Position numbers and translations under genes: made by a program
In this document: positions 9,522 to 54,815 of the stretch, piece after piece
Layout: every line of letters starts with the position of its first letter
Position numbering within the stretch: the stretch's first letter is position 1
From: Candidatus Sericytochromatia bacterium
Lineage (GTDB): Bacteria > Cyanobacteriota > Sericytochromatia > S15B-MN24 > VGJW01
Assembly (NCBI GenBank): GCA_035285865.1
Contig: JAYKHS010000002.1
Location: 1-61,657 of the forward strand
Length of the DNA stretch: 61,657 nucleotides
Direction of reading: 5' to 3'
The notes under the pieces: model-generated
The model's database searches: none
The model's input: the letters and a program-made list of their open reading frames with translations, nothing else
What the model was told of the DNA's origin: nothing

Positions 9522-9545
9522 CCGCTCCTCCGGGACTACCAGTAT

Positions 9546-9563
9546 TTTCAAGAAATCTTGAAA
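9546..9563. promoter_or_regulatory. Perfect inverted repeat TTTCAAGA-AA-TCTTGAAA, candidate operator between the divergent men transcription units
   Basis: 8-bp arms with a 2-nt spacer in an AT-rich island of the divergent intergenic region; a GbsR-type regulator gene is adjacent. Confidence 0.65.
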
Positions 9564-9624
9564 CCTTTGAAGATAGTGGTAACATCCTAGCAGATTCCCT
9601 TCCCCCGTGGAAAGGCCCCGCACG

Positions 9625-13558: not shown

Positions 13559-13560
13559 CC

Positions 13561-14514
13561 ATGGCTGCCGTCGCACCTGAGGCTCCCCCTGCGGGTTGGC
13601 GCATGTGGTGGGCCGGTGCGCGCCCGAGGACGCTCGGTGTTGGCGCGGCCCCCGTCCTGCTCGGACTCGGCCTGGCCCTGACGCGCCTCGCCAGCGAGAC
13701 GCCGACGGGACCCGGAATTCGCGCCGACCTTTTCGCAGCATGTCTACTTGGCGCATTGTTGCTACAGATTGGATGCAACTATGTAAATGATGTGGCGGAC
13801 TTCCAGCGCGGCACAGACGGTCCGGACAGGGTCGGCCCCTTGCGGCTGGCGGCGTCCGGACTGGCGTCGCCGCGCGCGCTCTGGACGGCAGCAGCCCTGT
13901 GCTTCACCGGTGCAAGCCTGTGCGGGGCCTGGTTGCTGGCCAGCCGGGGCTGGCCGATCGCGGCGATCGGCGTCGCATCCATCGTGGCGGCCGTCGCCTA
14001 CACCAGCGGTCCCTTTCCCCTCGCCTACCACGGCCTTGGCGAGGTGACGGTCGCGCTCTTCTTCGGGCCCGTGGCGGTCCTCGGGACGGAGTATGCCCTC
14101 GCGGGCAGCATCTCGTCGTGGGGAGGCTGGTTGTCGCTGATCCCCGCAGGCCTCGGTGCCGCCGTGCTGGCCATCAACAACCTGCGGGACCGGGAGGGCG
14201 ATGCGCGGACAGGCAAGCGGACGCTGGCCGTCCGCTTCGGGGCACCGCGTGCGGTGCAGACCATCCGCACGATGATGCTGGTGCCCTTTGCCGTGCCGGC
14301 CATCCTCGCCGTGGGTCTCGCCCGGCCCTGGCTGGCGCTGCCCCTCCTGATGCTGCCTTCGGCCACGCGCCTCGCCCTGTCCGTCCGGGTCGACACGCCT
14401 GCTCCCGGACTGAACGTGGCCCTCGCCATGACGGGAAGGCTGCTCTTCCGCGTGGCCTTCTACATGACGCTCATCATGCTGCTGATGGCGAAGTCCCCGC
14501 CCTTTCGGGGCTGA
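13561..14514 (+). CDS. menA: 1,4-dihydroxy-2-naphthoate polyprenyltransferase
   Basis: ARPRTL, NYVNDVADF..GTD, Y.GLGE, NNLRD...D...GKRTLAVR; multiple TM segments. Confidence 0.93.
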   Translation: MAAVAPEAPPAGWRMWWAGARPRTLGVGAAPVLLGLGLALTRLASETPTGPGIRADLFAACLLGALLLQIGCNYVNDVADFQRGTDGPDRVGPLRLAASGLASPRALWTAAALCFTGASLCGAWLLASRGWPIAAIGVASIVAAVAYTSGPFPLAYHGLGEVTVALFFGPVAVLGTEYALAGSISSWGGWLSLIPAGLGAAVLAINNLRDREGDARTGKRTLAVRFGAPRAVQTIRTMMLVPFAVPAILAVGLARPWLALPLLMLPSATRLALSVRVDTPAPGLNVALAMTGRLLFRVAFYMTLIMLLMAKSPPFRG

Positions 14515-14520
14515 ACGCGC

Positions 14521-15471
14521 ATGGCCGAGATCCGGTCCGTCCGTCACCTGCCCGCCGAAGGCGCCAGCACGGCACACGGGGCGGCCGGGATGCCTTGGCG
14601 CGCCCTGCTCGTGGTCGCGGACGGTGACCGCGCCGTCCAGGCCGAAGCCGTCGCCCTCGAGGCTTTCGGGATCGACCGCAGGGAAGCCCTCGGACATGCC
14701 CTGGCCTGGGCGAGCCTGGATCTGGAGGCTCGCAGGCAGCACCTGTCGCTGCCCGGACTGCTTGCCCGATCGCTTGGGCGGGATGCCACCCATCCAACTG
14801 TGGCCGTCTCCGCCTTGCTCTTCGGCAACGATCTGCCGTCCCTCGCGGCCTCGGCCCGAGACGCCGCCGAGGCTGGCCATCGGACCTTCAAGCTCAAGGT
14901 GGGCAATCCGGGCGACGCGAGGCGCCCCGAAGACGCCGTGGTCGGCGAGACGACCGCCCGCGTAAGCGCAGTCCGCGAGGTCCTGCCGGCGCAAGCTCGC
15001 CTGCGCCTGGATGCCAACCAGGCCTGGACCTGTGCGCAGCTGCGGGCGATCACGGCCGCACTTGCGCCCTTTCGCGACAGCATCGACTGGCTGGAAGATC
15101 CCTGTCTCCCCGAGGTGCCCTGGCAAGCGGTGCTGGATGCCGGCACCTTGCCGTTGGCCCCCGACGAACGCTGCCGCGAACCCGAGGCCATCCTGCCGTG
15201 GCTGGGGCATGCCCGGATGGCGGCCGTCGTCCTGAAGCCCAGCCTCTGGGGTCCTGAGCGATCCTTGGGGATCGCCGCCGAGGCCCATCGTCATCGCCTG
15301 CCGGTCATCGCCTCCTCGGCCTACGAGGGCGACGCCGGACTTGCGCTGGTGGCCGCCTTCGCGGCGGCTGCCGGAAGCCCCGGCATACCTCATGGCCTTG
15401 TCCTGGGCACCCGTTCCGCAGGCCCGGTGCTCCACGTGCCGCGCGGCCTTCCTGAGGCGACCGGATGCTGA
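14521..15471 (+). CDS. menC: o-succinylbenzoate synthase (enolase superfamily), divergent
   Basis: FKLKVG, LRLDANQAW, LEDP, DE, LKP, SSAYE motifs. Confidence 0.85.
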   Translation: MAEIRSVRHLPAEGASTAHGAAGMPWRALLVVADGDRAVQAEAVALEAFGIDRREALGHALAWASLDLEARRQHLSLPGLLARSLGRDATHPTVAVSALLFGNDLPSLAASARDAAEAGHRTFKLKVGNPGDARRPEDAVVGETTARVSAVREVLPAQARLRLDANQAWTCAQLRAITAALAPFRDSIDWLEDPCLPEVPWQAVLDAGTLPLAPDERCREPEAILPWLGHARMAAVVLKPSLWGPERSLGIAAEAHRHRLPVIASSAYEGDAGLALVAAFAAAAGSPGIPHGLVLGTRSAGPVLHVPRGLPEATGC

Positions 15472-16907
15472 GGGACGGGCGGTTCGCGGCGGGCGCGCTG
15501 CTCGCGGCGCACGCGAGGAACCGAGGCCGGCAGCCTGCCGTCATCGGCCCCCGCCACGCGTGGACTTGGGAAGCCCTGCACCGCGAGGTCGTCCTTCTGA
15601 CCGAACGGTTGGTCTCCCGGGGCATCGGCCCGGGTTGTCGGGTCGGCATCCACGGGTTCAACGGCCCCTCGTGGCTCGTGGCGGCCACGGCCGTCGCAGC
15701 TGCAGGAGGCGTGCTGGTCCCGCTGAATGTCCGCTGGGCCGCGCACGAGCAGGAAGAATGGCTCGAACGGTCGGGCGCCCTTGGCGTCCTCGACTGCTCC
15801 GACGATGATTGCGAGGTCAGCTCCGTCTGGAGGAGCCTCCCGGCCGGCAAGGCTGCCGCAGAAATCGCCCGGGTCTCGGAGCTCCTCACGCTGATGGCCA
15901 CCTCCGGGTCGACGGGCAAGCCGCGAGGGATTGGCCTGACGTCTGGAAACCACGCCGCGCACGCGCTGGCCCATGCCGGCCAGACAGGCCTTTCAGCCGA
16001 GGACCGGGTGCTGGTCGTTCTGCCCCTGTTCCACATCGGTGGCCTCAATGCGTGGTGGCGGGCGCTTGGCAGCGGCTGCACGACAATCCTGCTTCCCCGG
16101 TTCGCCGTGTCGGCCGTTGCGGCTGCGTTCCGCGACCATGCGCCCACGATGGCCTCGATGACCGGCACGATGCTCAAGGACCTGCTTGCGGCGGACGTTC
16201 GCCCGGGACCAGCCATGCGGTATCTGCTGGCAGGAGGCGAGGCACTGGCCGAGGAGCTGGGTGTGGCTCTGCCGATGGTCCGGGCCAGTTACGGGATGAC
16301 GGAGACCTGCGGACACGTGGCCTTCGGGAATCCGGGCGGACGGGACCGGGATGGCTTGCGGGTCCAGCCCGGCACGAAAGTCGTCGTCCGGGACGCGGAA
16401 GGACGCGTGGCGGCAGCTGGCATGCCCGGCCGCATCCACGTCTCCGGGCCCACGACGTGTGCCGGGTGGCTCGACCCGGAAGGCTGCTGGCAGCCCCGGG
16501 AGCATGGGGCTTGGCTCGAGACGGAAGACCTCGGCACCCTCACGGAGACCGGCCGGCTGGTCATCCTGCCGCGACCGGCGGAACGCATCGTGTCCGGCGG
16601 TGAGAACATCTCCCCTTTCGAGATCGAGGCGGTGCTCGAAAGCCTGCCCGAATTGACAGGTGCGCTCGTGGCCGGCGTGCCGGACGCGCGCTGGGGCATG
16701 CGCCCTGCGGCCCTCGTCGTGGCTGCGGCAGGCGTGCCGGAGGCGATGGTGCGACAGGCCATCGCCGACGCCTTGCAGGCGCGCCTCGGCAGTTTCAAGC
16801 ACCCCGGGTCCATCCATCTGGTCGACAACCTGCCCGTGCTCGCCAGTGGCAAGAGGGACCGCCAGGCGGGCGCACGCATGCTTGCCGATCGGACGAGAGC
16901 GGACTGA
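15465..16907 (+). CDS. menE: o-succinylbenzoate-CoA ligase
   Basis: TSGSTGKPRG, PLFHIGG, SYGMTET, SGGENISP.EIE, SGK; last gene of the men operon. Confidence 0.88.
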   Translation: MLRDGRFAAGALLAAHARNRGRQPAVIGPRHAWTWEALHREVVLLTERLVSRGIGPGCRVGIHGFNGPSWLVAATAVAAAGGVLVPLNVRWAAHEQEEWLERSGALGVLDCSDDDCEVSSVWRSLPAGKAAAEIARVSELLTLMATSGSTGKPRGIGLTSGNHAAHALAHAGQTGLSAEDRVLVVLPLFHIGGLNAWWRALGSGCTTILLPRFAVSAVAAAFRDHAPTMASMTGTMLKDLLAADVRPGPAMRYLLAGGEALAEELGVALPMVRASYGMTETCGHVAFGNPGGRDRDGLRVQPGTKVVVRDAEGRVAAAGMPGRIHVSGPTTCAGWLDPEGCWQPREHGAWLETEDLGTLTETGRLVILPRPAERIVSGGENISPFEIEAVLESLPELTGALVAGVPDARWGMRPAALVVAAAGVPEAMVRQAIADALQARLGSFKHPGSIHLVDNLPVLASGKRDRQAGARMLADRTRAD

Positions 16908-33080: not shown

Positions 33081-33701
33081 GTGTTGCAGACGTCAGCCCG
33101 CCTCCTGATGACCTTCGCTCTCATGGGTGCGGGCTGCGCCATGAGCCCTTCCGTGCCCGAGCAGGATCAGAATCTTCCCGCTGACGGTGCCAGAGAGACA
33201 CAACCCTTCAGCGAACCCCCTGATGCACCGATGCCTTTGCCTGCGGGACAGCGGGATACCTTCGTGGTCGAGGGAGGTCCGCTCGGCCTGGCGCAGGGAG
33301 GCCTGGAACTGGAGGTTCTCGAACGCCAGGCGCGTGACGGTGGTCTCGACGTGCGCGCTGCCTTCGTGCGAACGGGCCTGCTCGGAGCGGAGCGGAAGGA
33401 ATGGATCGTCAGGATGGATGCCTCAGGCATGCGCGTCGATGGCAAGCCCTTCCTGCCTTGGCGGGCACGTCCCGGCGATCGCTGGGAAGCCCAGGCCGGC
33501 TCTGCAATCCTCGAAGACTTCGAGGACCTTCAAGTGCCCAGCGGGCACGCCTCGAAAGTGTGGCGCGTCCGCTTCACGGAGCCTGGGCAGCCTGACACTC
33601 GCTGGTGGTTCGCCCCGGGCCGCGGGCTCGTGCAGGCCGAGTTCTCCGCGCTGGGCAGCACGGTCGTGGCCCTTCACAGCCGACGGGTGCAAGGGTCCTA
33701 A
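33081..33701 (+). CDS. Hypothetical lipoprotein
   Basis: Lipobox-like MGAG-C; C-terminal E.L.VP.G...WFAPG.GLV pattern of small beta-rich lipoproteins; start uncertain (33033-33108). Confidence 0.65.
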   Translation: MLQTSARLLMTFALMGAGCAMSPSVPEQDQNLPADGARETQPFSEPPDAPMPLPAGQRDTFVVEGGPLGLAQGGLELEVLERQARDGGLDVRAAFVRTGLLGAERKEWIVRMDASGMRVDGKPFLPWRARPGDRWEAQAGSAILEDFEDLQVPSGHASKVWRVRFTEPGQPDTRWWFAPGRGLVQAEFSALGSTVVALHSRRVQGS

Positions 33702-35032
33702 TCGCGGGGAGCGATGCTGACCATGGCCCGGGTACCCTTCTGGGCGATGGCCGTTTCGAGGTGCTTGCGGCTGATCACGATAGGGCCTTCCTTGCTCATC
33801 GGGTCATTCAGAAAGACCTTGTCACCCTCGATGGCCGTGACGACGGCATAATGGCCGCTGCCTCGAGGATTGCCGGTGATGTAGCTGGGGATGACGTTCA
33901 GGATGACGAGTCGGCCTTTGTCGAGTTCCTCGGCGATGGTCTTCGCGCTGGCATCGTGACGCGTCCGGGCATCCAAGCCGTAACGTTCCGCTCCGCGGTG
34001 GATATTGGGATAGGAGGAACCCTCCCGGTCGTTGACCACGACTCCCATTACCTTGCGCGTCCGCTCGATGGCCGCATCAGCCTCACGAGGGGACGGATCA
34101 ATGACGCCGAAAGCCTTGGCCACCATCGTGAGTGAGGTCGGCCCACAGTTTGAGTTGTCCCAGCCGGGAGTGTCCTCATGCGAGTTGCCCAAGCCCCGAT
34201 ATTGGGTGATGAACCAGTCCCGACGCCGCTCATGGGGGTCGCCGCCGGGAACTGGCCGCAAGGCATCGTCCTCGGAATCCTCATCCGCAGACCGATCGAC
34301 CTCCGGCGTCCCGACGGCCAACCTGGGCAGTGGCACCTTGGCAAGAATCTCGTCCCGATCAATTCGTCGACCTTCGGGTGTCAGGCGCAGACGCTCCCGA
34401 AGGCCCTCATCCAACACGCCGCCGTCAAGGATGCGCTGCGTATAGGCGGACGCACGATCGGCCTGAAATCCAGCCGAGAACTCGGCTCGCGAAAGCGTGC
34501 CGTTGCCGTCCGAGTCGTAGACGGAATAAGGCGTCCCTGCAACGGCAAGGCCATTCGGCCCTCCCCCGGCACGAGTCCAAGCCAGGTCTTCATGGACAGC
34601 ACGCCGCTGCCGCACCACGTCACGACGCATGGCAAGGTATTCGGACTCGTCGGCCAGCGGTTTGCCCTTGCGAGACCGGGCAGCATCCGGAAACAGCTGC
34701 CGGAACTCGTACTTCCAGCGGCTCTCGTGGGCCACGACCATGTCGCGACGGCGCTCGACCGCAAACTCTTCACGCGTGATGCGGCCATCCTTGTTCGTAT
34801 CGTAGACGGCAGCTCGGCGTGGCAGGATTCCCTCCACCAGCTCTGCACCCTCGACTGCCCCGGAACCATCACGGTCCAGCGCACGAAAGGCCTTTCCCTG
34901 TGTCAGGCGATCGGCTGCCATGCGGGGTAGCGTCGGCTCTGCCTCGGCCCCGGGGGACGCACCATCCGGGCGGTTCCGCCCCTTGCCCGGCTGCGCCAGA
35001 GGCTTCGTCTCGCCATTAACGGACCGCGTCAC
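33698..35032 (-). CDS. EF-hand-containing C39-like cysteine peptidase
   Basis: Three EF loops (DRDGSGAVEGAE, DTNKDGRITREE, DSDGNGTLSRAE); NCGPTSLTM, GHYAVV, LNDP triad; GTG 35032 with GAGG RBS just after the upstream stop. Confidence 0.82.
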   Translation of the reverse strand: MTRSVNGETKPLAQPGKGRNRPDGASPGAEAEPTLPRMAADRLTQGKAFRALDRDGSGAVEGAELVEGILPRRAAVYDTNKDGRITREEFAVERRRDMVVAHESRWKYEFRQLFPDAARSRKGKPLADESEYLAMRRDVVRQRRAVHEDLAWTRAGGGPNGLAVAGTPYSVYDSDGNGTLSRAEFSAGFQADRASAYTQRILDGGVLDEGLRERLRLTPEGRRIDRDEILAKVPLPRLAVGTPEVDRSADEDSEDDALRPVPGGDPHERRRDWFITQYRGLGNSHEDTPGWDNSNCGPTSLTMVAKAFGVIDPSPREADAAIERTRKVMGVVVNDREGSSYPNIHRGAERYGLDARTRHDASAKTIAEELDKGRLVILNVIPSYITGNPRGSGHYAVVTAIEGDKVFLNDPMSKEGPIVISRKHLETAIAQKGTRAMVSIAPRD

Positions 35033-40725: not shown

Positions 40726-41244
40726 ATGCCCCATCGCCTTCCCCCGTTGCCCGAGGACCGCCCGGCCAAGGTCCTCTTCGTCTGCCTCGGGAACATCTGC
40801 CGCTCCCCCCTTGCCGAAGGCCTGTTCCGCCATCACGTGGAACGTGCCGGCCTCGGTGCACGCTTCGTCATCGATTCGGCAGGCACGGGAGGCTGGCATG
40901 CGGGCGAACCGCCTCATCCCGGTTCCCGGGCAGTCGCGAGGCGGCGCGGGCGCGACATCTCGGACCAGCGAGCACGTCAGGTCACGGCGGCCGACCTCGT
41001 CGACTTCGACCTGATCGCCGTGATGGACGCGCAGAACCTGCGCGACATGCAGGCGCTGGCCAACGGCCGGGCGAGCACCGCCGTGCTGGCCCGCCTGCTG
41101 GATCTTGCCCCCTCGGACCATAGGCGTGACGTACCCGACCCTTACGGCGAGCCTGACGCCGCCTTCGACGACGTCTACGACCTGCTGGACGGCAGCACGT
41201 CGGCGTTGCTGGAGGCCTGGCGGGCGATTCCCGCCGAAGTCTGA
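40726..41244 (+). CDS. Low-molecular-weight protein-tyrosine phosphatase
   Basis: [14 protein letters not shown]-loop, DSAGT..WH.G, VPDPY. Confidence 0.95.
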
Positions 41245-42251
41245 CCGCGGGCGCGGGCCAGCGAGAGGGCGGTGTCTTCGATCATGTCCTCCTGCCCCCC
41301 GACCAGTCGCCGCCGCCCCAGTTCCACGAGCAGTTCACGGGCGGGAATGCCGTAGCGCGCTTCTGCACGGCGCGCGAAGAGCAGGAAGGACGAGTAAACC
41401 CCCGCATAGCCGAGGGTGAGGGCCTCACGGTCGATGCGGATAGGCTGATCCATGATGGGCAGGACCAGATCCTCCGCGACGTCCTGAATGGCAAATACGT
41501 CGACTCCGGTCTCGATGCCGCTCAGGGCACAGACCGCCACCATGACCTCCATGGGCGTGTTGCCGGCTCCGGCGCCAAGGCCGGCGGCAGCGGCGTCGAT
41601 GCGGGTTGCCCCTTCCTCGATGGCAGCCAGAGAGTTGGCCACGGCCATCGAAAGATTGTTGTGGCCGTGAAAGCCGATCTCGGTGGCCGGGTCCAGCCGC
41701 TCGCGCAGCAGGGCGATGCGCGCGCGGACCGCATCGGGCAACATGTGGCCGGCGGAATCCGTGCAATAGACGCAACGCGCCCCGTAAGCCTCCATCTTGA
41801 GCGCCTGCGCGACCATGGCCTCGGGTTCGGCCATGTGGGCCATCATCAGGAACCCGACTGCATCCATCCCGAGATCCCGAGCAAGGCCGAGATGCTGCTC
41901 GGAAATATCCGCCTCGGTGACGTGGGTGGCCACGCGAATCGTCCGAACCCCTGCCTCGTGCGCCATCCGCAGGTCATCGGCGGTGCCGATGCCCGGAATC
42001 AGCAGAGCCGAGCAGCGAGCCTGCCTGAGGCGAGGGACGACATGTTCCAGATAGGTCCGGTCACTGTGCAGCGGAAAGCCATAATTGACGGAGGCGCCAC
42101 CCAAGCCATCGCCGTGCGTGACCTCGATCAGCGGCACGCCTGCGGCATCCAGACCCTCGGCGATCGTCGCCATCTGGTCCAGAGTGATGCGATGCCGCTT
42201 GGGATGCATGCCATCGCGCAGCGTCATGTCGTGCAGGGCGATGCGGGTCAT
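41175..42251 (-). CDS. dmpG: 4-hydroxy-2-oxovalerate aldolase
   Basis: [49 protein letters not shown]; 70-bp convergent overlap with the phosphatase. Confidence 0.96.
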
Positions 42252-43135
42252 GCCCGGACCTCCGATCGCGTCAGGGAACGGACCATGGCCTCGCCTGTCG
42301 CCACGGCGGCACAGGTCATGATGTCCAGATTGCCGGCATAGGTCGGCAGGTGGTCGCCCAGACCCTCGACCTCAAGGAAAATCGACACGCGGCATTCCTC
42401 GAAGACCGGTCCATTGACGATGCGGTAGCCCGGCACATAGGCCCGTACGGCTTCCTGCATGGCCTGAACGGAAGCGCGGATGGCCGCGACGTCGGGATCG
42501 CCTTCGAGGATGCAGTGGACCGTGTCCCGCATCATCATCGGCGGCTCCGCCGGGTTCAGGATGATGATCGCCTTGCCTGTCCCGGCCCCTCCCACCGAGA
42601 CCAGGGCGTCAGCGGTCGTACGGGTGAACTCGTCGATGTTCCGACGGGTGCCGGGACCGGCCGACCGCGAGGCCACGGTCGCCACAATCTCGGCATAGGC
42701 CACGTTCTGGACGCGGGAAACCGCGTGAACCATCGGGATGGTGGCCTGGCCGCCGCACGTCACCATGTTCACGTTCCCGAGGCCTCGATCGAGCAAGGCG
42801 TCCAGATTCACCGGGGGCACGCAATGAGGCCCCACGGCGGCTGGCGTCAGGTCAACCGTCAGGATGCCGCGCTCCGCCAGTGCCTGCGCGTGGGCCGGAT
42901 GGGCATGGGCCGAGGTCGCATCGAAGGCTATCCGTACTTCGTGCGCGTGGGGCAAGAAACCCTCGAGTCCGGCATCCGTGGTCCGAAGTCCCATCGACCG
43001 CGCCCGCGCGAGACCCTCGGACTCGGGATCGATGCCCACCATCCAGACGGGCTCCAGAATCGGACTGCGGGCCAGCTTGACCAACAGGTCCGTACCGATG
43101 AGGCCGGACCCAATCAGGACACAAGGAATGCGCAC
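42248..43135 (-). CDS. dmpF: Acetaldehyde dehydrogenase (acylating)
   Basis: [48 protein letters not shown]; probable GTG start 43135. Confidence 0.95.
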
Positions 43136-43332: not shown

Positions 43333-44073
43333 ATGTCCCTGACCGAGGTCCTTGCCCTCATCGCATTCCTTTCGGCCGTCCCCCTCGTGATCCTCGGCTT
43401 TGCCAAGCTGCGCGACCTGCCGGCAGACGCAACGGTCGACAACGGCCTCAAGGCCTGGATCGTGGTGCCTCTGGCGCTGGCGCTCGGCTCGGGTGCCGTC
43501 ATCCGCCAGGAAGAGATGGCCCGTGACCCCAAGCGCTTCGAAGCCCCTGCCGAGCATGGCCATGAGCCAGCCGGCGAGGAAGCGGCTGCGGGGCACGAAA
43601 GTGCTGCCGAACACGACTCAGCCGCTGAGCACGAGGAGACCAAGGCCGAAGAAAGCTCTGTGGGCGCTGCCGGTAGCGAATCGGCAACCAGCGAGGCCAC
43701 GGCCGACGAGGGGGCCGCGCCCCCGGCGGCCGCAGAACCCGCCGCCGCGACTGCCGCACTGGACGGCAAGGCGCTGTACGAAACCAACTGCGCCGCGTGT
43801 CACCAGCCCACCGGGCAGGGCATTCCGGGAGCGTTCCCCCCTATCGCGGGTAGCGAGTATGCCAATGGTTCGGCCGACAAGCAGATCACGATAGTCCTGA
43901 AGGGCCTGTCAGGCCCCATCAAGGTCAAAGGTCAGACCTACAACGGCCAGATGGCGGCGTTCGGGGACAGGTTGAGCGACGACCAGATCGCCGCCATCGT
44001 GACCTACGAGCGCACCAGCTGGGGCAATTCGGGCGGGGCCGTCACGGCCGCGGACGTCAAGAAGCTGCGCTGA
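43333..44073 (+). CDS. Membrane-anchored monoheme cytochrome c with an acidic His-rich linker
   Basis: Two N-terminal TM segments, E/A/H-rich linker, CAACH, G.G.PGAFPP, YNGQM axial Met, LSD..IA...TY.R.SWGN; GGAG RBS. Confidence 0.92.
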
Positions 44074-44986: not shown

Positions 44987-45592
44987 CTATTCCCCGAGCA
45001 GCACCCGCGTGTCGGCGACAAGGCGATCCAGGCCATCGTCGTCCGGACGGTAGAAGCCACGAATCTCGCCCTTGCGATCGACGAGCACGAAGTGGCGCCC
45101 GTGGGTCACAGGAGGCTTGATTGCATGATGAGCGTGCTGGCCGTGGCCGGCATGGGCAGAGTAAGGGTTGTCGGCAGCGATGCCGGCGTGGATCTTGAAG
45201 GCACGGGCCAGCTTTACCATCGCCGGCTCATTGCCGGTGGTCAGGAAAGACCAATTCCCGAGATCCGCTCCATGCTGAAGCGCAAAGGACTTGAGACGGA
45301 CCGGGGTATCACGGACCGGATCGACGGAGAGGGAAGCGAACGCCAGTTCATCGGAGTGACCGAGGCGCCTCTGCGCCTGGCGCATCACCCGAGTCATGCC
45401 GGGACAGACATCCTTGCAGGTCGTGAAGATGAAGTCGGCGACCCAAACCTTGCCCGAGAGCGATGCACTGGCAAAGGGCCTGCCATCCTGATCCGTGACC
45501 CGAAAGACAGGGGCCTTGCCGAGCGCAGGCAGATCTGAAGGCGCAAGCAGAACAGCCGCCAGCAAGGGCCCCAGCATGTGCAACACGATCAA
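44987..45592 (-). CDS. SCO1/SenC copper chaperone
   Basis: DFIFTTCKDVCP (CxxxC), SVDP..DT, conserved H..F.LVD..G.IRG.Y, plus a His-rich insertion. Confidence 0.93.
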   Translation of the reverse strand: MIVLHMLGPLLAAVLLAPSDLPALGKAPVFRVTDQDGRPFASASLSGKVWVADFIFTTCKDVCPGMTRVMRQAQRRLGHSDELAFASLSVDPVRDTPVRLKSFALQHGADLGNWSFLTTGNEPAMVKLARAFKIHAGIAADNPYSAHAGHGQHAHHAIKPPVTHGRHFVLVDRKGEIRGFYRPDDDGLDRLVADTRVLLGE

Positions 45593-45795
45593 GCCGAGCG
45601 GCGATTCTGGCGTCGGACCCAGAGCACCAGGGAAACCCCGGCCGTCAGTTGCACGGCAGAGACCAGAACTCCTGCGATGAGGTAGGCTTGGCCATTGCGC
45701 GCGCTACCCAGCGGGCATACCGTACACGCCTCGGCCACGCCGGGCAGCACCAGCGCAAGCAACAGGGCGGAGAAGACGTAAACGACGGTCTTCAC
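45589..45795 (-). CDS. Small 68-aa membrane protein with signal peptide followed by a CxxC motif
   Basis: MKTVVYVF...VAEA-CTVC...TM-RRQ; GTGA overlap with the upstream stop and TTGA overlap with SCO. Confidence 0.7.
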   Translation of the reverse strand: MKTVVYVFSALLLALVLPGVAEACTVCPLGSARNGQAYLIAGVLVSAVQLTAGVSLVLWVRRQNRRSA

Positions 45796-46391
45796 AGCAG
45801 GTACACCAGGACGTAAAGCACCGGCCACACGAGCACGACGAAGCCCCAGAACAAGCTGGCAGCAACGAGACCACCCTTGCCGAGTGCCCCCTTCCGCGCC
45901 TGAGCCACGGCCCAGACCAGACCGCCCAGGGCCACCAATGCGTGAGCCGCATGCATCCCGACCAGCAGGTAGAAGAACGAAGCGTGGGTGCTGTACGAGA
46001 GCGTCAGGCCCTCGCGGATCAACCCCTGCCACTCGACGCCCTGAACACCCAGGAACACGGCACCCAGAACTGCCGCTGCGGTGAGCAGACCGACGAAGGA
46101 AGGGCGACCCGCGCCGTGCGCGCGATTGGCAAGCAAAGCCAGGACACCGCTGGCAAGCAGCGCCAAGGTATTGACGCCCGTGACCTCCACGGGAAAGCGG
46201 GGTTGGCCAGGCGGAGGCCAAGCCCCGGGATTCGCACTCTCGCCAACGATGAACGCGGCGACAAGCCCCGAGAAGAAGAGCATCTCGCAGATGATGGCCA
46301 GCACCATCCCGAAGACCGCATGCGGAATGGCCGGTTCGGGACGTTCCGGACGCGCCGATACGGGTCGGGAAAGGGTACCCTCGACAGCCAT
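45792..46391 (-). CDS. Heme-copper oxidase subunit III-like (second copy)
   Basis: GM.L.I..E..FF, NT..LL.S, LG.VFL..Q..EW, FY.L.G.H..H, FW.FV..VW; start ATG 46391. Confidence 0.88.
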   Translation of the reverse strand: MAVEGTLSRPVSARPERPEPAIPHAVFGMVLAIICEMLFFSGLVAAFIVGESANPGAWPPPGQPRFPVEVTGVNTLALLASGVLALLANRAHGAGRPSFVGLLTAAAVLGAVFLGVQGVEWQGLIREGLTLSYSTHASFFYLLVGMHAAHALVALGGLVWAVAQARKGALGKGGLVAASLFWGFVVLVWPVLYVLVYLL

Positions 46392-46404: not shown

Positions 46405-46788
46405 CTAGTGATGCGCCTCGACACCCGTGCCACGCGGCTTCAGCGGATCGACGGGACGCTCGATGTGCGCCGGAGCATTTGCGGAAGGGTTCTTCCAGTT
46501 ATTGCCTTCATGGTTCATCACGTCGGGAGACACCATGAAGAAGAACATGAACATGCCCGCAAGCCCCATGATGCAGAGGTAAGGGATGTAGCGGGGTTCA
46601 AGATGTACATGCATCCACGTGGTCACGGCGAACCAGGTGCTGGTCAGCATGACGACGAGCGACACCGTGATGGCAAGCCAGCCGAGGCCCGTCTGCTGAG
46701 CTGCCAGGCTCATCAGCGGCAGAGAAACCAGAATCGCCCAGATCCGCCAATACTTGCGCTCTTCGAGCGCCGCTGCTTCGTTGCTCAT
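46405..46788 (-). CDS. Cytochrome c oxidase subunit IV-like (CtaF/CyoD family)
   Basis: Y..IW..L, three TM segments, WMHV..E motif; lies between the two subunit III genes. Confidence 0.7.
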   Translation of the reverse strand: MSNEAAALEERKYWRIWAILVSLPLMSLAAQQTGLGWLAITVSLVVMLTSTWFAVTTWMHVHLEPRYIPYLCIMGLAGMFMFFFMVSPDVMNHEGNNWKNPSANAPAHIERPVDPLKPRGTGVEAHH

Positions 46789-46794
46789 GGCCAC

Positions 46795-47370
46795 CTACCT
46801 GATGATGTAGAAGATGTGGAAGAGGAAGAACCACACCACGTCGACGAAGTGCCAGTAGATGCCGATGAGCTCTACGCGACCGAGATGCTTGCCCTTTTCG
46901 GCCTGGGCGGCGATGGCCAGCAGGATGGCGACACCTGCCAGGATGTGGATGGCATGCAGGCCCGTCGCCGAGAAGTAATACCCGTAGAAGGTACCCGTCT
47001 GCGGCACATGATCGTGCGATATCTTGGTGTACCACTCATAGGCCTTGATGCACAGGAAGACGAGGCCGCCATAGGCCGCAAGGCGCAGTCGTGCAGCGGC
47101 CAGAGGCCCGTTGCCACGCTCGGCTGCTGCGTGGGCCAGCATCGCGAAGAGGCTGGAAGTCACCAGCAAGGCGGTGTTGAAGGTACCGATCCAGACATTG
47201 AGTCCGGCCGTCATCTGGGCCCAATCCGGATGACCGATGCGATGCATCAGGTATGAGGCCAGGATGCCCCCGAAGATGGGAATTTCAGAGGCGATGACCA
47301 TCCACACCGCGAGCTTGCCCGTGGGCATGCCCGCAGCGCTACGGCCGGTGGCGATGATCTGACCGCTCAA
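46795..47370 (-). CDS. coxC: Heme-copper oxidase subunit III (first copy)
   Basis: W..IASE..FG, NT.LL.TSS, K.YEW, TGLH..H..G, YWHFVDVVW; TTGA overlap with coxA. Confidence 0.92.
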   Translation of the reverse strand: MSGQIIATGRSAAGMPTGKLAVWMVIASEIPIFGGILASYLMHRIGHPDWAQMTAGLNVWIGTFNTALLVTSSLFAMLAHAAAERGNGPLAAARLRLAAYGGLVFLCIKAYEWYTKISHDHVPQTGTFYGYYFSATGLHAIHILAGVAILLAIAAQAEKGKHLGRVELIGIYWHFVDVVWFFLFHIFYIIR

Positions 47371-49121
47371 TGTGCACCCTCCGGCTGAACGCTGCCCTGA
47401 CCGGCAGGAGGCTCGTCCTGCGGCCAGAAGTCGGACTCACGATCGGGATGGCTGTACTCGTAGGGTCCACGGTAGACCGTGGGCATCACGGCAAAGTTGC
47501 CATGCGGCGGGGGCGAAGGACAACGCCACTCGAGCGTGTTGGCCCCGTAGGGATTGTCCTCGGCCTTGCGGCCCTTGTACATCGACCAGAAGAAGTTGGC
47601 GAAGAACAGGATCTGCGCCACGCCCATGATCGCCGTCGCAACCGAAGAAATCTCGCGAAGCAGGATGCGATCCGGCGTCATCAGATCCGGGAAGTTCGTG
47701 AAGCTGTAGATACGGCGATGGTCTCCCATGATGCCGGTGAAGAACAGCGGCATCCAGATGAAGTTGAACGAGATGATGGTGATCCAGAAATGGAGCTTGC
47801 CAAGCCCCTCGTTCAGATGCCTGCCGAACATCTTGGGGAACCAGTAGGTGAGTCCCGCGAAGCTGCCGATGATGGCGATCGGGAAGAAGGTGTAGTGGAA
47901 GTGGGCAAGCACGAAGTACGTGTCGTGGAAGTGGATGTCCGCACCACTGGCGCCCAGGAAGATACCCGTGACGCCGCCGACGAGGAACTCGGCCACGAAG
48001 GACAGGGCCCACAGCATCGGAACCGTGAACTGGATCGAGCTGCGGTACAGGGTCGCGATGAAGACGAACATGATCTCGGCGATGGGAATCGAGATCAGCA
48101 CCGTCGTCGCGGCGAACACGTTGGCCATCCGGGGATCGATGCCCGAAATGAACTGGTGGTGCGCCCAGACGAAGAAGGACAGACAGGCCGTGCCGATGGA
48201 CGAATACAGCAGCGTCCGATACCCGAAGAGCTTCTTGCGGGAGAACACGGGCAGGATCTCTGCCAGGAAGCCCAAGGCGGGCAGCAGCACCACGTACACC
48301 TCGGGGTGACCGAAGAACCAGAACAGGTGCTGCCAAAGGACGGGGTCGCCGCCCGTGCGGGGATCGAAGAAGTGGGTGCCGAAGTTCTGGTCCATGATGA
48401 GCATCACGGAACCCGCGATCAGCGGCCCGACCGACATCATGAACATCACGCTCGCGATGACGATCATCCAGACGGCCATCGGCACGTCCTCGAACTTCAT
48501 GCCGGGCGCCCGGGCGTTCATGGCCGTGACGATGAAGTTGATGCCGCCCATCAGGAAGGCCACGAACTCGACGGCGACGGCCACGACCCACAACGTGGAG
48601 CCACTGGGCGTCAGGTTGAACTGAGAGCCCGCCGACAGGGGGGGATAGGCCGTCCAGGCACCGCCGAAGCCGCCGCCCGGAACGAAGAACGACCAGATCA
48701 GGATGATCGACGAGATCAGGAAGACCTGATAGGACGCTCGATTCAGACGCGGAAACACCATGTCGTCCGCCCCGACCATCAACGGGATCAGGTAGTTGCC
48801 GAACGCCGCCAGCAGGACGGGCATCGCCACGAAGAAGATCATGATGGTCCCGTGCTGGGTGATCATCATGTTGTAGCTGGCCGGCGTCACGACGCCGAAG
48901 AACGGGACAGGCTGATTCGGGAAGGCCAACTGCCAACGGAAGACGTAGGCAAAGAAGCCCCCGATGAGCGCCATGAAAAGACCTGTGATCAGGTACTGCT
49001 TGGCGATCATCTTGTGGTCGGTGGACCAGCAGTACTTGAGGAACCAGTGCTCCTCATGATGGGCGTCATGATGCCCATGCGAGTCGGAATGGCCGTGGGC
49101 GGCGATGGAATGCGAAGCCAT
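47367..49121 (-). CDS. coxA: Cytochrome c oxidase subunit I, A-family (GHPEVY), with an atypical helix VIII
   Basis: TDHK, HGTIMIFF, DMVFPRLN, WFFGHPEVY, WAHH, HDTYFVLAHFHY, RRIY; all six His ligands and the cross-linked Tyr present. Confidence 0.97.
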   Translation of the reverse strand: MASHSIAAHGHSDSHGHHDAHHEEHWFLKYCWSTDHKMIAKQYLITGLFMALIGGFFAYVFRWQLAFPNQPVPFFGVVTPASYNMMITQHGTIMIFFVAMPVLLAAFGNYLIPLMVGADDMVFPRLNRASYQVFLISSIILIWSFFVPGGGFGGAWTAYPPLSAGSQFNLTPSGSTLWVVAVAVEFVAFLMGGINFIVTAMNARAPGMKFEDVPMAVWMIVIASVMFMMSVGPLIAGSVMLIMDQNFGTHFFDPRTGGDPVLWQHLFWFFGHPEVYVVLLPALGFLAEILPVFSRKKLFGYRTLLYSSIGTACLSFFVWAHHQFISGIDPRMANVFAATTVLISIPIAEIMFVFIATLYRSSIQFTVPMLWALSFVAEFLVGGVTGIFLGASGADIHFHDTYFVLAHFHYTFFPIAIIGSFAGLTYWFPKMFGRHLNEGLGKLHFWITIISFNFIWMPLFFTGIMGDHRRIYSFTNFPDLMTPDRILLREISSVATAIMGVAQILFFANFFWSMYKGRKAEDNPYGANTLEWRCPSPPPHGNFAVMPTVYRGPYEYSHPDRESDFWPQDEPPAGQGSVQPEGAH

Positions 49122-49132
49122 TGACGGAACCT

Positions 49133-49972
49133 CTAGTAGATGGACTGACCGCCGGGAACGCTGGCGTTCCTGGCGCTGTCCTCGATGAAGGCAGCGTGCT
49201 GCTCAGGCGTCTCGACGAAGATGCGGGCGGGCATCAGGCCATGGCCGATGCCACACATCTCGGCGCACTGGATGTCGAAGGCACCGGCCTTGGTCGGCTT
49301 GAACCAGCCGTTGATGGTGCGGCCGGGCACGGCGTCCTGCTTCAGGCGGAATACCGGCACCGAGAAGTCGTGCATGACGTCCTTCGACTGCAGCTCGAAG
49401 TGCACCACCTTGTCGACGGGCACATGCAGGCGATCGATGGTGACGATGTCGTCTGCCGTGTCGAGCTTGTTGTCGGTGCCCGGATGGCGGAAAGTCCAAC
49501 CCCACTGCTGGGCGGTGACACGAACCACGGTGTCCGCGGGCGGAGCCACCTGCTTGACCTGATGCCACACCTTGACGGCGACGACGATGATGATGAGGTC
49601 GCACGCGATGACCAGCCAGTGCGGCCACGAAATCCACGTGTGCAGCTGATGATCGTGCTTGCCGAGATACTCGGGTTTGTGGCCCGGCCTGCGACGCGAC
49701 TGATAGAGCAGCGCGAAGAAGGCGAAGATCGACGCGAAGAACCAGAAGCCGACCAGGCCGGCGATGATGAGGATGACGAAATCGATGTCGCCCGCAAAGC
49801 TCGAATTCGCCGGAATCAGACGTGCGATCAAGTCTTCGCCGCCGGCAAAGATGTAGAGCAGGATGGCGGTAATGACCGTGACCACCCCGAGAATCGTCAG
49901 GGAGTAGACGGATCGAGCAAGGGGCTGCCAGCCACTTCCCCCGCTCTCGTGCGACGGATGCTGTTCGGCCAC
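49133..49972 (-). CDS. coxB: Cytochrome c oxidase subunit II with CuA site
   Basis: QQWGW, DVMH.F, KQDAVPG, CAEMCGIGHGLM. Confidence 0.95.
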   Translation of the reverse strand: MAEQHPSHESGGSGWQPLARSVYSLTILGVVTVITAILLYIFAGGEDLIARLIPANSSFAGDIDFVILIIAGLVGFWFFASIFAFFALLYQSRRRPGHKPEYLGKHDHQLHTWISWPHWLVIACDLIIIVVAVKVWHQVKQVAPPADTVVRVTAQQWGWTFRHPGTDNKLDTADDIVTIDRLHVPVDKVVHFELQSKDVMHDFSVPVFRLKQDAVPGRTINGWFKPTKAGAFDIQCAEMCGIGHGLMPARIFVETPEQHAAFIEDSARNASVPGGQSIY

Positions 49973-49974
49973 GG

Positions 49975-50661
49975 CTACATCTCCTTCGGCTTCAACTGGG
50001 ACAGATAGACGGCGACATCACGAATGGTCTGCTCATCCGGCAGGGCCATCGCCATGGGGCGCATCATCGCTCCCTGGGCATCGCGGGGGTCCGCACCCCG
50101 AACGCCGCTGCGGAACTTGTGCAACTGGGTCACGATGTACCAGTCGTTGCGTCCGGCAAGACGAGGCGCCATCATCGCCTGATTGCCCAGCCCCTCGGTG
50201 CCGTGGCAGGAGGCGCAGGAGGCCTGGTAGACCTTGCCGCCCTTGTCCTGATCGCCGTACAGCGACGGCGGCGCATAGACCGTGGACATCGACGCGACGT
50301 ATGCCGCGACCACCTTGAAATCGTCCGTGCTGGCCAAAGTCCGCACCATCGGGCGCATGCGCAGGCCCTCGACATCGTCCGGATGCGCGCCCCGCACGCC
50401 TTCCCGCCACTTGTTGAGCTGGTTTTCGACGTAAGCCGCATCCAGCCCACCGATATTGGGAGCTGCGGCCAGCTTGCTGCCGCCACCGTCGACCTGATGG
50501 CACTGCATGCAGTAGGCATACAGCTGCTTCTGCCGATCAGAGGACGAACTCAACTGCTGGTCGGGGTGACAGCCAGCGAGAGCTGCGGCAAGCAGACCTG
50601 CGCCCAACAAGGACCACGCGCCTCGCGCACGGCTGGATTTGATGCTGGTGGAGTGAATCAT
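49975..50661 (-). CDS. Diheme cytochrome c4-type lipoprotein
   Basis: Lipobox LAG-C; two repeats with CMQCH and CASCH, AP.(I/L)(G/A)G...Y...QL, M.PM. Confidence 0.92.
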   Translation of the reverse strand: MIHSTSIKSSRARGAWSLLGAGLLAAALAGCHPDQQLSSSSDRQKQLYAYCMQCHQVDGGGSKLAAAPNIGGLDAAYVENQLNKWREGVRGAHPDDVEGLRMRPMVRTLASTDDFKVVAAYVASMSTVYAPPSLYGDQDKGGKVYQASCASCHGTEGLGNQAMMAPRLAGRNDWYIVTQLHKFRSGVRGADPRDAQGAMMRPMAMALPDEQTIRDVAVYLSQLKPKEM

Positions 50662-50843
50662 CTGGAAGTTCTTGGATGCGGTCAGGGTCAGGCCGGCGGT
50701 TGCCCTAGCAATTTACCCCCTGCAGGCAAGCCTCTGTCAAAGGTCATGACGCCGATTGCTTGCAAAGAGTTGTTCCGCTCGCCGGGGGACAGGCAGGATG
50801 CTAGCATCATGAGGCGCCTAGTTTCAGGATCCGACACGGTTTG

Positions 50844-52301
50844 ATGAGCACGCTTTCGACGAATGGCCCGGACGGGCCCGGCGGCGGTTCGCCCGCGAAC
50901 CCGCCCATGGTCGGCGCGCCAGACCTGCCTGCTGCGTCCGGGAGCCTCGGCAAAGCCGAGCAGGGCCCGGCCTTGCGGGATATCCTCCGTGCTTATCTGA
51001 CGCTCACGAAGCCCACCATCCTGCTGACGGTGCTGGCCACAGGCCTGCCGGGCCTGCTGCTGGCGACCGGCGATCGCACACTGGATCCCGTGCTTGCTCT
51101 GGCCACGCTCCTCGGCACGTCGCTGGCCTCCGCCGGTGCGGCCGCCATCAACCACTACATGGACCGCGATATCGATGCGGTCATGTACCGTACCCGCGGC
51201 CGCCCCTTGCCGACGGGCGTGCTGGACCCGCAGACGGCCCTGCGCTTCGGCATCCTGCTGTCCGTGCTGGCCACGGCGGTGCTGGCGTGGTGGACGACTC
51301 CGATGGCGACTGCCCTTGCCGTCGGCAGCATCCTCTACTACACGGTGTTCTACACGGGCTGGCTCAAGCGCCGCACGCCGCAGAACATCGTGATCGGCGG
51401 GGCTGCCGGGGCCTCGGCGCCGCTCATCTGCTGGTCGGCGGTGACGGGAGATCTGGCGTGGGCGCCGGTCGTGATGTTCGCCATCATCTTCCTCTGGACG
51501 CCTCCGCATTTCTGGGCGCTGGCCCTGTTCCGGAAGGAAGACTACGCCTCGGCGGGGGTCCCCATGCTCCCGGTAGTTGCCGGCGAAGAGGTCACCAAGC
51601 GCCAAATCCTCGGCTACAGCGTCATCATGGTGCTGACCTCGCTGGCGCTGCCCGTGCTGGGGGCTGGCGGCACCGGCTATGTGGCCGCCGCGGGCCTGCT
51701 TGGTCTGGGCTTCATCTGGATGGCCTGGAAAGTGATGCAGGAGGCCAGCGTCCGCAACTGCATGCGCCTTTTCACCTACTCGATTGCCTACCTGTTGCTG
51801 CTGTTCGGTGCCATGGCGGTCGACATCGGAGCCGGCCGCCTGCGTCCGGAGACGCGCATCGGGGATCTGCTGGTCCCCAGGGCGGAAGCCAGACCCCAGC
51901 CCCGACGCATGAAGGTGGTCTGGGCCGGAGAGGCGAGCAAGGTCATCCCGGTCACCATTGCCCCGCTCGAACCCGAGTCCATGCTGCGGCTGGGCACCAA
52001 GAGCACCGTCACGTTCCGCGTGACGAACCACAGTACCCGCAGTATCGCTTTCGAGGCCATTCCTCATGTGGCTCCGCTGGCAGCGGATGCCCACTTCAGC
52101 AAACTGGCCTGCTTCTGCCACCGGGTGCAGACCCTGAAGCCCAGACAGAGCAAGAACTTCAACCTGGTCTACACGGTGGATCTGGACCTGCCGGAGTCCA
52201 TCCGGACTGTGACGGTCAGCTACACGCTGGCACCGACAGCCACGGCCTCGCACGATCACCACGGCCATCACGGTGCCCATCACGGGGACCACCATCATTA
52301 G
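50844..52301 (+). CDS. cyoE: Heme O synthase (CyoE/CtaB/Cox10) fused to a CtaG/Cox11 copper-chaperone domain with a poly-His tail
   Basis: LTKP, N...DRDID..M.RT..RPL, YT..LKRRT.QNIVIGG, LWTPPHFWAL, DY...GVPMLPV; then TN.S...A...V.P..A..HF.KLACFC...Q.L.P...D.DLP..I.T.T.SYT. Confidence 0.92.
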   Translation: MSTLSTNGPDGPGGGSPANPPMVGAPDLPAASGSLGKAEQGPALRDILRAYLTLTKPTILLTVLATGLPGLLLATGDRTLDPVLALATLLGTSLASAGAAAINHYMDRDIDAVMYRTRGRPLPTGVLDPQTALRFGILLSVLATAVLAWWTTPMATALAVGSILYYTVFYTGWLKRRTPQNIVIGGAAGASAPLICWSAVTGDLAWAPVVMFAIIFLWTPPHFWALALFRKEDYASAGVPMLPVVAGEEVTKRQILGYSVIMVLTSLALPVLGAGGTGYVAAAGLLGLGFIWMAWKVMQEASVRNCMRLFTYSIAYLLLLFGAMAVDIGAGRLRPETRIGDLLVPRAEARPQPRRMKVVWAGEASKVIPVTIAPLEPESMLRLGTKSTVTFRVTNHSTRSIAFEAIPHVAPLAADAHFSKLACFCHRVQTLKPRQSKNFNLVYTVDLDLPESIRTVTVSYTLAPTATASHDHHGHHGAHHGDHHH

Positions 52302-53917: not shown

Positions 53918-54352
53918 ATGCCTCCCGTTCCCGATGGCTGGCGTCTACTGGAGCCCGCCCTCCTGGCCTCCCTTGCCGACGAGGCCCGTGCCCTCGACGG
54001 GCTGCAGGCAATCCTGCGGTTCGAGAGTCACGGAACCGTGTTCGCACGAGATGATAGCGATCTGGATCTCGCCTTCCTCGGCGCACGCACCTGGCCACAC
54101 ACACGCACGCTTGAACTCGCCGCTCGCCTATCGTCTCTGTCAGACCGGACGGTCCAATGCGTCGATCTTCGTGCCGTTCCCGGCTTGGTCGCCCTTGAGA
54201 TGCTGGAAGAGGCCGAGCCCCTGTTCGTGCCGGACATCCTGGCGCTCGACCTCTCTCAGACCCGGCTGGATGCCGAACGCCTGAACCTCGGCAGGTGGCG
54301 CCGAGACATCCTTGAAGGCATCCGGCGTCGAGGCACCATCCACGGCGGATGA
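53918..54352 (+). CDS. Minimal nucleotidyltransferase (MntA-like antitoxin), catalytic GS motif altered to ES
   Basis: RFES.....AR.DSDLDLA...VDL; C-terminal RL.L..RR.IL..I...GTI.G; upstream of a HEPN gene. Confidence 0.75.
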   Translation: MPPVPDGWRLLEPALLASLADEARALDGLQAILRFESHGTVFARDDSDLDLAFLGARTWPHTRTLELAARLSSLSDRTVQCVDLRAVPGLVALEMLEEAEPLFVPDILALDLSQTRLDAERLNLGRWRRDILEGIRRRGTIHGG

Positions 54353-54815
54353 GGTCTTGCTGGGCAAGGCCGCCATCATCGAACGATGTCTGGCGCGCGT
54401 GGCGGAGGAGGTCGAGGCAGCTGGTTCGGCGCTTGCAAGCGACCTGACGCGTCAGGACGCCGCCTTGCTCAACCTCCTGCGCGCTTGCGAGGCCGCCATA
54501 GATGGTGCCATGCGCAAGGTACGAAAGGCGGGCTGCGGCATACCGCGAGACGCCCGGGAGGCCTTCACGCTGCTCCAGCATGCCCGACTGCTGCCGGACG
54601 AGCTGACCCTCGCCATGGTCAGGATGGAGGGCTTCCGGAATGTCTCGGTCCACGATTATCAGGACCTGGATCCGAAGGTGACATACGAGGTGCTTGTCCA
54701 TCATCACCAGGACCTCGCCGCCTTCGCCCGCTGGCTGGTTGCAGAAGGCACGGACTTACAAGCTGGCGAAAGAGCTGGACGCCTTGGCTATCGGGTGTAC
54801 AGTTTCAGCGCGTAG
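54342..54815 (+). CDS. HepT-like HEPN RNase toxin (DUF86), apparent start codon ACG
   Basis: (M)ADEVLLGKAAIIERC..R..E, QDA..LNL.RACEAAID, F.LL, GFRNVSVHDY (RX4HXY); may be a pseudogene. Confidence 0.8.
   Translation, partial: TADEVLLGKAAIIERCLARVAEEVEAAGSALASDLTRQDAALLNLLRACEAAIDGAMRKVRKAGCGIPRDAREAFTLLQHARLLPDELTLAMVRMEGFRNVSVHDYQDLDPKVTYEVLVHHHQDLAAFARWLVAEGTDLQAGERAGRLGYRVYSFSA

Follow-up and report, generated by a model that had tools for sequence, protein, structure and literature searches.

An A1-derived cytochrome c oxidase without the canonical K-channel residues in Candidatus Sericytochromatia and its multi-phylum clade

The window analysed here, a stretch of 61,657 nucleotides of contig JAYKHS010000002.1 (assembly GCA_035285865.1) from a Candidatus Sericytochromatia bacterium, carries on its minus strand a cytochrome c oxidase operon with the gene order dihaem cytochrome c, coxB, coxA, coxC1, coxD, coxC2, a gene for a protein of 68 amino acids (aa) and sco (Table 1). 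Subunit I (CoxA) and subunit II (CoxB) of this A-family oxidase have lost the K proton channel's canonical residues and, as judged by sequence comparison, this lysine-less state is a fixed feature of a clade extending over several phyla.

Table 1. Genes and residues of the oxidase locus (positions in the window; R. sphaeroides positions in brackets)
Feature	Position	Strand	Basis or conservation
Dihaem c4-like cytochrome, lipoprotein-type signal (LAGC)	49975..50661	-	Pfam Cytochrom_C x2
coxB, subunit II with CuA, 279 aa, E101 absent	49133..49972	-	Pfam/NCBIfam profiles, alignments
CoxB His118 (I109), predicted subunit I interface	49619..49621	-	120/120; 79/80 metagenome loci
CoxB Asp125, membrane-buried, predicted subunit I interface	49598..49600	-	120/120; 80/80 metagenome loci
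coxA, subunit I, 584 aa, A1-derived (GHPEVY), without canonical K channel	47367..49121	-	
CoxA Glu185 (S197), upper D channel	48567..48569	-	139/139; 56/56 metagenome loci
CoxA helix VII hydroxyl ladder T303, S307, T311, S315 (P315, A319, I323, G327)	48177..48215	-	
CoxA helix VIII S-I-P-I-A-E-I: S344 (A356), I347 (T359), E349 (I361), I350 (K362)	48072..48092	-	
CoxA Glu378 (L390), helix IX	47988..47990	-	127/139, Thr in 10
coxC1, short subunit III	46795..47370	-	Pfam COX3
coxD-like small subunit IV	46405..46794	-	weak TIGR02229 match below cut-off; position kept in family loci
coxC2, second short subunit III	45792..46391	-	Pfam COX3
68-aa CxxC membrane protein, overlaps both neighbours (coxC2, sco)	45589..45795	-	
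SCO1/SenC copper chaperone	44987..45592	-	Pfam
In-frame fusion of heme O synthase (CtaB) and CtaG/Cox11, divergent	50841..52301	+	Pfam UbiA + CtaG_Cox11
Membrane-anchored monohaem cytochrome c	43333..44073	+	Pfam; same position in G003

Numbering according to the Rhodobacter sphaeroides enzyme was anchored on structure 1M56 via an alphaproteobacterial locus (offset +12 in helices II-X), which in CoxA equates (ours=R. sphaeroides) P346=P358, I347=T359, A348=G360, E349=I361, I350=K362, V353=S365, A287=S299, E185=S197 and E378=L390 and places L110 of CoxB at the E101 position; with HMMER, the helix VIII motif PIAEI (48072-48086) aligns gap-free with PTGIK or PTGVK of solved oxidases. The substitutions listed in an initial annotation of this DNA, Ile at K362 and T359, Ala at S299, Val at S365 and a missing E101 in CoxB, are upheld by this alignment, and none of the residues by which the K channel is recognised (K362, T359, S299, S365 and subunit II E101) is found in the two proteins. 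Because these residues are missing, the oxidase is, on sequence grounds, A1-derived rather than a canonical A1 member; equally, both subunits score below the NCBIfam cut-off (CtaD 581 vs 670.75; CoxB 134 vs 147.7). Retained, as had also been noticed for the metal ligands of subunit I, are the metal ligands and associated residues of CoxA (H90/H409, H407, H272/H321/H322, Y276 (=Tyr288) of the GHPEVY motif, D395, H399/D400, R469/R470), together with the CuA residues H201/C236/E238/C240/H244/M247 of CoxB. The D channel, of which the initial annotation listed the core residues as kept, is intact in this core (Y43, N109, D120, N127, S130, N195, E274 = Y33, N121, D132, N139, S142, N207, E286) but not in its serine zone (described in bioRxiv 040717, excerpt), which is rebuilt by S197E, G198F, S200A and S201F; S197, S200 and S201 bound the upper D channel (PMC10341450, excerpt). 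The same residues occur in three further genomes of the genus, save Met at 350 in one of them (G002). Furthermore, over 47892-48158 an RNA-library contig departs from this sequence at only 1 of 267 letters, and RNA-library contigs from three studies, which as contigs are no measure of transcription or its level, span segments of the operon with roughly 99% identity.

The distribution of this state was read from 139 subunit I sequences, composed of the top 120 among 8000 scored homologues (67-100% identity) and 19 genome loci at no less than 60% identity, after exclusion of frameshifted pieces (L032) and of loci below 60% identity (L021, L022, L029, L078); all counts are within one clade and do not represent independent events. 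In addition, 80 metagenome loci were gathered by CuA-domain motifs, 48 of which cover helix VIII, and a 59-row comparison set was assembled with membership defined by presence of the Lys. Close homologues do not retain the PTxxK motif. Lys at the K362 position, Thr or Ser at 347 and Ser at the S299 position each occur in 0 of the 139 sequences, Met is the commonest residue at the K362 position (117/139), and S344 is present in 139 and E349 in 138; the 48 metagenome loci read likewise (Lys 0, Thr/Ser359 0, E349 48, S344 48). Glu, Ala and Phe stand at S197, S200 and S201 in 139/139. Invariant wherever covered are H90, H272, H321, H322, H407, H409 and Y276, as is E274 (139/139), and in 120 CoxB sequences the CuA residues H201, C236, C240, H244 and M247. 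Named hosts belong to Myxococcota, Gemmatimonadota, Bdellovibrionota, Eisenbacteria, Verrucomicrobiota and Sericytochromatia, with the nearest CoxB records labelled Candidatus Sericytochromatia. Puniceicoccaceae bacterium K14 (L016), possibly a cultured carrier, lacks E349 and has two further oxidases. The ratio of nonsynonymous to synonymous substitution rates (dN/dS) is 0.014-0.069 in six pairs from the four genomes of the genus. Because both subunits are affected in concert and the loss is clade-wide and under strong purifying selection, it is to be read as remodelling and not as decay, in line with the initial proposal. The only point in favour of a decayed or mis-assembled gene is the lethality of such changes in model enzymes; a dN/dS of no more than 0.07, the Lys-less state of every family member, the full operon with its assembly genes and the recurrence in independent genomes and sequencing runs leave it a negligible probability.

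Beside these losses new residues have become conserved. The three extra membrane glutamates of the initial annotation (E185, E349, E378) are indeed encoded, at the codon positions given there, and a His/Asp pair in helix II of CoxB and a Thr/Ser ladder in helix VII of CoxA, which it had missed, are to be added. In helix VII, T303 is conserved in 117/139, Thr or Ser at 307 in 138/139, T311 in 136/139 and S315 in 138/139, at positions occupied in Lys-bearing relatives chiefly by Ala, Ala, Ile and Gly; we infer that the ladder lines the K pore below Tyr276. In the model enzymes G324, G327 and A356 bound the K channel (PMC10341450, excerpt). CoxB helix II, with invariant P117-H118 and D125, exceeds its counterpart in Lys-bearing relatives by roughly four residues; Asp125 and the extension are also found in sister lineages, where His118 is absent. 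Glu at the CoxB E101 position is seen in 12/120 sequences and 15/80 metagenome loci, and Glu at the I361 position was found in 0/202 non-family sequences. The one new acid common to the whole Lys-less clade is E/D185 (Asp in L021, Glu in L022 and L085-L087). Within the family, replacement of E378 by Thr covaries only with the Gly at i-4 and with lineage markers. An equivalence of S344 (A356) with S309 of the ba3 enzyme was dropped, as Table 2 in the accessible part of PMC12901375 aligns S309 with T359. By sequence comparison, polar residues newly placed near the K pore thus comprise the helix VII Ser/Thr, the Ser at A356 and CoxB H118/D125; because of these, the statement that the whole channel was lost may be too strong, although the canonical residues are gone.

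The alignment-based AlphaFold model of CoxA (predicted local distance difference test (pLDDT) 90.9; a single-sequence run with pLDDT 43 was unusable) adopts the A-family fold, with 1ar1 as top Foldseek match (template modelling score 0.85/0.94, 37% identity). The CoxA/CoxB complex was predicted with a score of 0.87 (best control 0.00; 97% agreement between runs, partner pLDDT at least 80), above a mark that is reached by 116/157 solved and 2/215 mismatched pairs; as similar complexes have been solved, the pass shows likeness to these. The predicted interface holds CoxA 344-345 and 348-349 and CoxB 117-118 and 125, with E378 outside, and on the helical wheel E349 flanks the S365 position while E378 points 130 degrees off the subunit II face. 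The three glutamates would consequently probably not form one site but act at three places, E185 within the upper D channel, E349 at the interface with subunit II and E378 in another location.

In a midpoint-rooted tree without B- or C-family outgroup, from which the trait columns had been removed, the family (support 100) and three sister lineages (100) group (99) with Lys-bearing A1 enzymes, so that loss of the Lys is most simply a derived condition; in agreement with this position among A-family subunits I, matches to B-family structures in the PDB are weak (E of about 1e-10 versus 1e-115). The approximately unbiased (AU) test rejects a grouping of the family with the archaeal Lys-less sequences (p 0.007), and likewise one with the archaeal set plus three Thr-keeping Lys-less sequences (p 9e-5), whose likeness to the A2 group of Fe(II) oxidisers is inferred; the Lys has therefore been lost separately from the archaeal set. 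A loss shared with the 'SIPS' Lys-less group is not rejected (p-AU 0.50). Among 47 genomes of the host class the family occurs in 4 (the genus) and the sister type in 3; this patchy spread in the class suggests lateral acquisition. The subunit I query had no match in seven class relatives (G005, G006, G007, G008, G030, G036, G040; some 93-98% complete). A sister-type Lys-less operon adjoins another operon that encodes a canonical oxidase with the Lys in L156 (G028:C1:199000-208500), equally in G035 and G038, which provides a natural pair for expression comparison. Two more isolated Lys losses lie within Lys-bearing clades (L029 7926-9683 and L078 7977-9758); in the L029 oxidase Gln replaces two CuB His (GQPEIY, WGQH).

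With A1-type aa3 enzymes (Paracoccus denitrificans 1AR1, R. sphaeroides 1M56, Thermus thermophilus caa3 2YEV) the clade shares the fold, six His, Tyr288, E286, the D core, CuA, the Mg site and the Arg pair, but differs from them by the missing K362, T359, S299, S365 and subunit II E101, the rebuilt serine zone, the new E185, E349, E378, S344, T311 and subunit II H118/D125 and the helix X motif HFHYTFFP. To speak of a new enzyme class, as initially proposed, nevertheless goes too far, as K-less A-family oxidases are published and common: the Lys is absent from 58/148 homologue-library representatives covering the site (fragments and family members included). K-less A1 rows have been tabulated for bacterium HR19 (Calescamantes, GBD04318, 'A1 simple operon') and for Elusimicrobia, Methylacidiphilum and Halobacteriovorax (Degli Esposti et al. 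2021, PMC8239418, table for Fig. S7). The HR19-type rows resemble this clade in being A1 with PEVY and having lost the Lys and E78, and L022 (Candidatus Calescibacterium), a sister of the family, matches the HR19 row at 8/10 subunit I columns; no A1 row, however, combines the clade's T351=Ile/Leu/Val, K354=Met/Leu, S291=Ala and S357=Val/Leu, and the table columns omit E349, E185, E378, T311 and the subunit II His/Asp. Natural loss of the Lys has furthermore been reported for acidophilic Fe(II) oxidisers, Thioclava, Actinobacteria and archaea (bioRxiv 2020.03.01.968255 and PMC8239418, excerpts) and for the Ferrigenium straubiae oxidase (bioRxiv 2026.01.22.701106, excerpt), all presumed to be working O2 reductases in which Lys and subunit II Glu are replaced and the D channel is kept, as here; most of these, in contrast, retain T351, where this enzyme has Ile347. 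Polar helix VII residues of some K-less oxidases have been read as a cbb3-like 'KC' channel (PMC8239418, excerpt), and polar residues at the helix VII positions of the cbb3 channel are likewise shared with the C family, the Na+-motive Thioalkalivibrio versutus enzyme included (PMC8239418); unlike in cbb3, the Tyr resides in helix VI (S315 occupies the helix VII Tyr position), CuA subunit II and a D channel are present and a ccoNOP operon is absent. No account of this clade was found in the open full-text literature, nor a paper on an S197D mutant; the accessible parts of PMC11214002, PMC6349859, PMC6431628 and bioRxiv 592808 do not mention the clade, and motif searches of the readable supplements of PMC11214002 did not find family sequences. 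As far as found, K-less A-family oxidases, the sister lineage included, are thus already published and this clade is apparently undescribed.

What the enzyme reduces can be approached from its genomic context. CoxA is the only PF00115 match in the four genomes of the genus (G000-G003; 83, 86, 94 and 98% complete), in which a bd oxidase was not found by a search with positive control; CcoO was not found in G000, G001 and G003, and G002 gave one short, stop-containing CcoO-like match. Family or sister loci led to 22 more genomes: 4 hold one oxidase and no bd, a single-chromosome Longimicrobiales assembly included, and 18 hold further PF00115 matches. CtaA (heme A synthase) and an NrfD-type subunit in a gene run resembling alternative complex III (ACIII) are found in 5/5 genomes, complex I and a pentahaem cytochrome are present, and cytochrome b was not found in the genomes with the ACIII-like run. 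This context fits an ordinary terminal O2 reductase in a proton circuit, and with high confidence the enzyme is considered to reduce O2.

NO or H2O2 as main substrate, which the initial annotation had offered as an option, would accord with the peroxidase activity that survives in the K362M enzyme (PMC7601700, excerpt) and with the repeated origin of nitric oxide reductases (NORs) from O2 reductases (PMC11214002, excerpt). NORs are characterised by the lack of the cross-linked Tyr and an altered non-heme metal site with Glu, Asn, Gln or Asp (PMC11214002, excerpt); in contrast to all of these (c/q/b/e/s/g/nNOR), Tyr276 along with the three CuB His is kept in 139/139, and the NOR ligand position is without Glu. 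Moreover, nirK scores above cut-off in 3/24 genomes and nirS gives one strong match in 24 (its search control silent everywhere), with none of either in the genus, and separate enzymes of the dihaem peroxidase family exist (several CCP/MauG-like proteins in G000), in a genome that would otherwise be without terminal oxidase. Such a substrate is accordingly held to be very improbable.

Still less credence is given to a Na+-translocating oxidase with the new carboxylates as Na+ ligands, equally suggested at first. E349, E378 and D125 are buried with Ser/Thr nearby, reminiscent of ion-binding sets, a cbb3 oxidase is known to be Na+-motive (PMC8874543, excerpt), and lagoon or marine samples are among the sequencing runs containing this stretch; most of these runs are, on the other hand, from freshwater, and E378 is replaced by Thr in 10/139. 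The c subunits of the ATP synthase read E-A-L or E-G-V, whereas the motif of Na+-type c subunits is E-S/T, so that the c-ring looks H+-type by its sequence, and NqrA was not found in 5/5 genomes.

For an O2-reducing enzyme we slightly favour a re-lined proton path on the K side; the complete reading, an aa3-type, H+-coupled O2 reductase in which such a path leads to Tyr276, is preferred over the others though regarded as evenly poised. Electrons would pass from menaquinol via ACIII and the co-encoded dihaem cytochrome to CuA, heme a and a3/CuB. As proposed from the predicted interface and helical geometry, E349 and CoxB H118 might stand in for E101 as entry or relay, the ladder T303/S307/T311/S315, on the helix used by the cbb3 channel, might conduct to Tyr276, and S344 with CoxB D125 might polarise the upper end of the path, while the pumped protons and the remainder would go through the D channel, where E185 replaces the serine zone. 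Outside the family, Ser or Thr at A356 is seen in 32/52 Lys-less versus 2/150 Lys-bearing sequences and, in 10 independent pairs, changes with loss of the Lys on average 5.8 times in the same and 0.1 times in the opposite direction (median p 0.03); it is possible that Ser/Thr at this position is a general compensation for Lys loss in several unrelated lineages.

Several points weigh against a re-lined path. The A356 result is one of four positions tested, with p ranging from 0.016 to 0.22, and T311, S307 and S315 are not tied to Lys loss across lineages (median p 1, 1 and 0.38). The Lys-less sisters L021, L022 and L085-L087 are without E349 and H118, L021 and L022 also without T311, and because of this these residues are not needed in every Lys-less enzyme. 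K362M, with Met the commonest residue here, abolishes turnover of the R. sphaeroides oxidase (PMC7601700, excerpt), and with Ile at T359 the upper K path in its usual form would be closed off. As to the sole-oxidase argument, the search control for AOX was silent and the genomes are incomplete. Finally, activity, pumping and proximities such as that of E349 and H118 are predictions.

The main rival, considered rather unlikely, holds that the K pore is closed and all protons run through the D channel, with E185 as second protonatable site below E274 and E349, H118 and D125 being structural or tuning the active site. It draws on E/D185 and the rebuilt serine zone: the former extends to the sisters, the latter was found throughout the 139 sequences, and residues that are for the most part hydrophobic have taken the place of all five canonical K residues; up to seven of the eight protons are already taken by the D path (PMC12901375, excerpt). 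It leaves unexplained, however, the invariant buried H118/D125/E349/S344/T311, and K-path mutants of model enzymes fail in the O to E step through D (PMC12901375, excerpt); equally, S201F and G198F might make the D channel narrower. The position of D125 in the periplasmic half of CoxB helix II, within the four-residue extension common to the Lys-less clade and with S344 as likely neighbour, could alternatively indicate an O2 reductase of low coupling, which draws some chemistry protons from the periplasm via CoxB D125 and S344 with reduced pumping and charge separation. This is judged improbable, as energy would be wasted in the only oxidase of the genus and the invariant D core and E274 are pump-like. 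Taken more broadly, it is conceivable, if somewhat short of an even prospect, that the clade handles what is lethal in K362M, as sole oxidase and still pumping, either by moving all eight protons through a Glu-augmented D channel or by a third kind of channel composed of subunit II His/Asp, helix VIII Glu and the helix VII ladder.

The genes surrounding coxA and coxB complete the picture. The dihaem cytochrome, a likely dedicated electron donor to CuA, is encoded immediately 5' of coxB in 54/54 metagenome loci with more than 900 nucleotides upstream; it was not found at the sister loci L021 and L022 or in the G028 region. The monohaem cytochrome c is a possible additional donor. The 68-aa CxxC protein, possibly a copper-handling factor, matches only hypothetical-protein clusters in the ESM Atlas, with similar ones in Acidobacteriota and Myxococcota. 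The CtaB-CtaG/Cox11 fusion ends in a His-rich tail and occurs in genome G003 as well. A promoter and terminator scan of the operon gave chance level only. About 30 kb from the operon, at 7828-16904, lie menaquinone genes of the classical type (MenG/UbiE, polyprenyl synthase, MenD-, MenB-, MenA-, MenC- and MenE-like). Elsewhere the window holds a nucleotidyltransferase and HepT-like pair, a toxin-antitoxin module of the MNT-HEPN type (53918-54815, plus strand), a DmpG/DmpF-like pair of aldolase and acylating acetaldehyde dehydrogenase with the remaining meta-cleavage pathway absent nearby (41175-43135, minus strand) and a C39-like peptidase fused to EF-hand repeats (33701-34921, minus strand). 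Outside the window, a dihaem cytochrome c is fused to a rhodanese domain (L243 50-1159, G000:C26) in a genome that also has a TsdA-like dihaem protein, recognised by eye, and a family operon (L009) occurs, with one PF00115 match and no bd, in a metagenome-assembled genome titled Klebsiella pneumoniae, a label that looks doubtful.

It has long been asked why a second (K) channel is needed in A-family oxidases. The clade amounts to a natural K362M/I + T359I + E101X enzyme that is strongly selected and in some hosts the sole oxidase found, and the question can be put to the test in an enzyme beside which no other oxidase was detected in its host. Equally, a shortlist of compensating residues, E185, S344, T311, E349 and H118/D125 of subunit II, can be tested natively or as suppressors of R. 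sphaeroides K362M. Some NCBI records of the clade are mislabelled 'cbb3-type', and oxidases annotated as A1 in many Myxococcota, Gemmatimonadota and other uncultured aerobes may differ in their yield of protons per electron.

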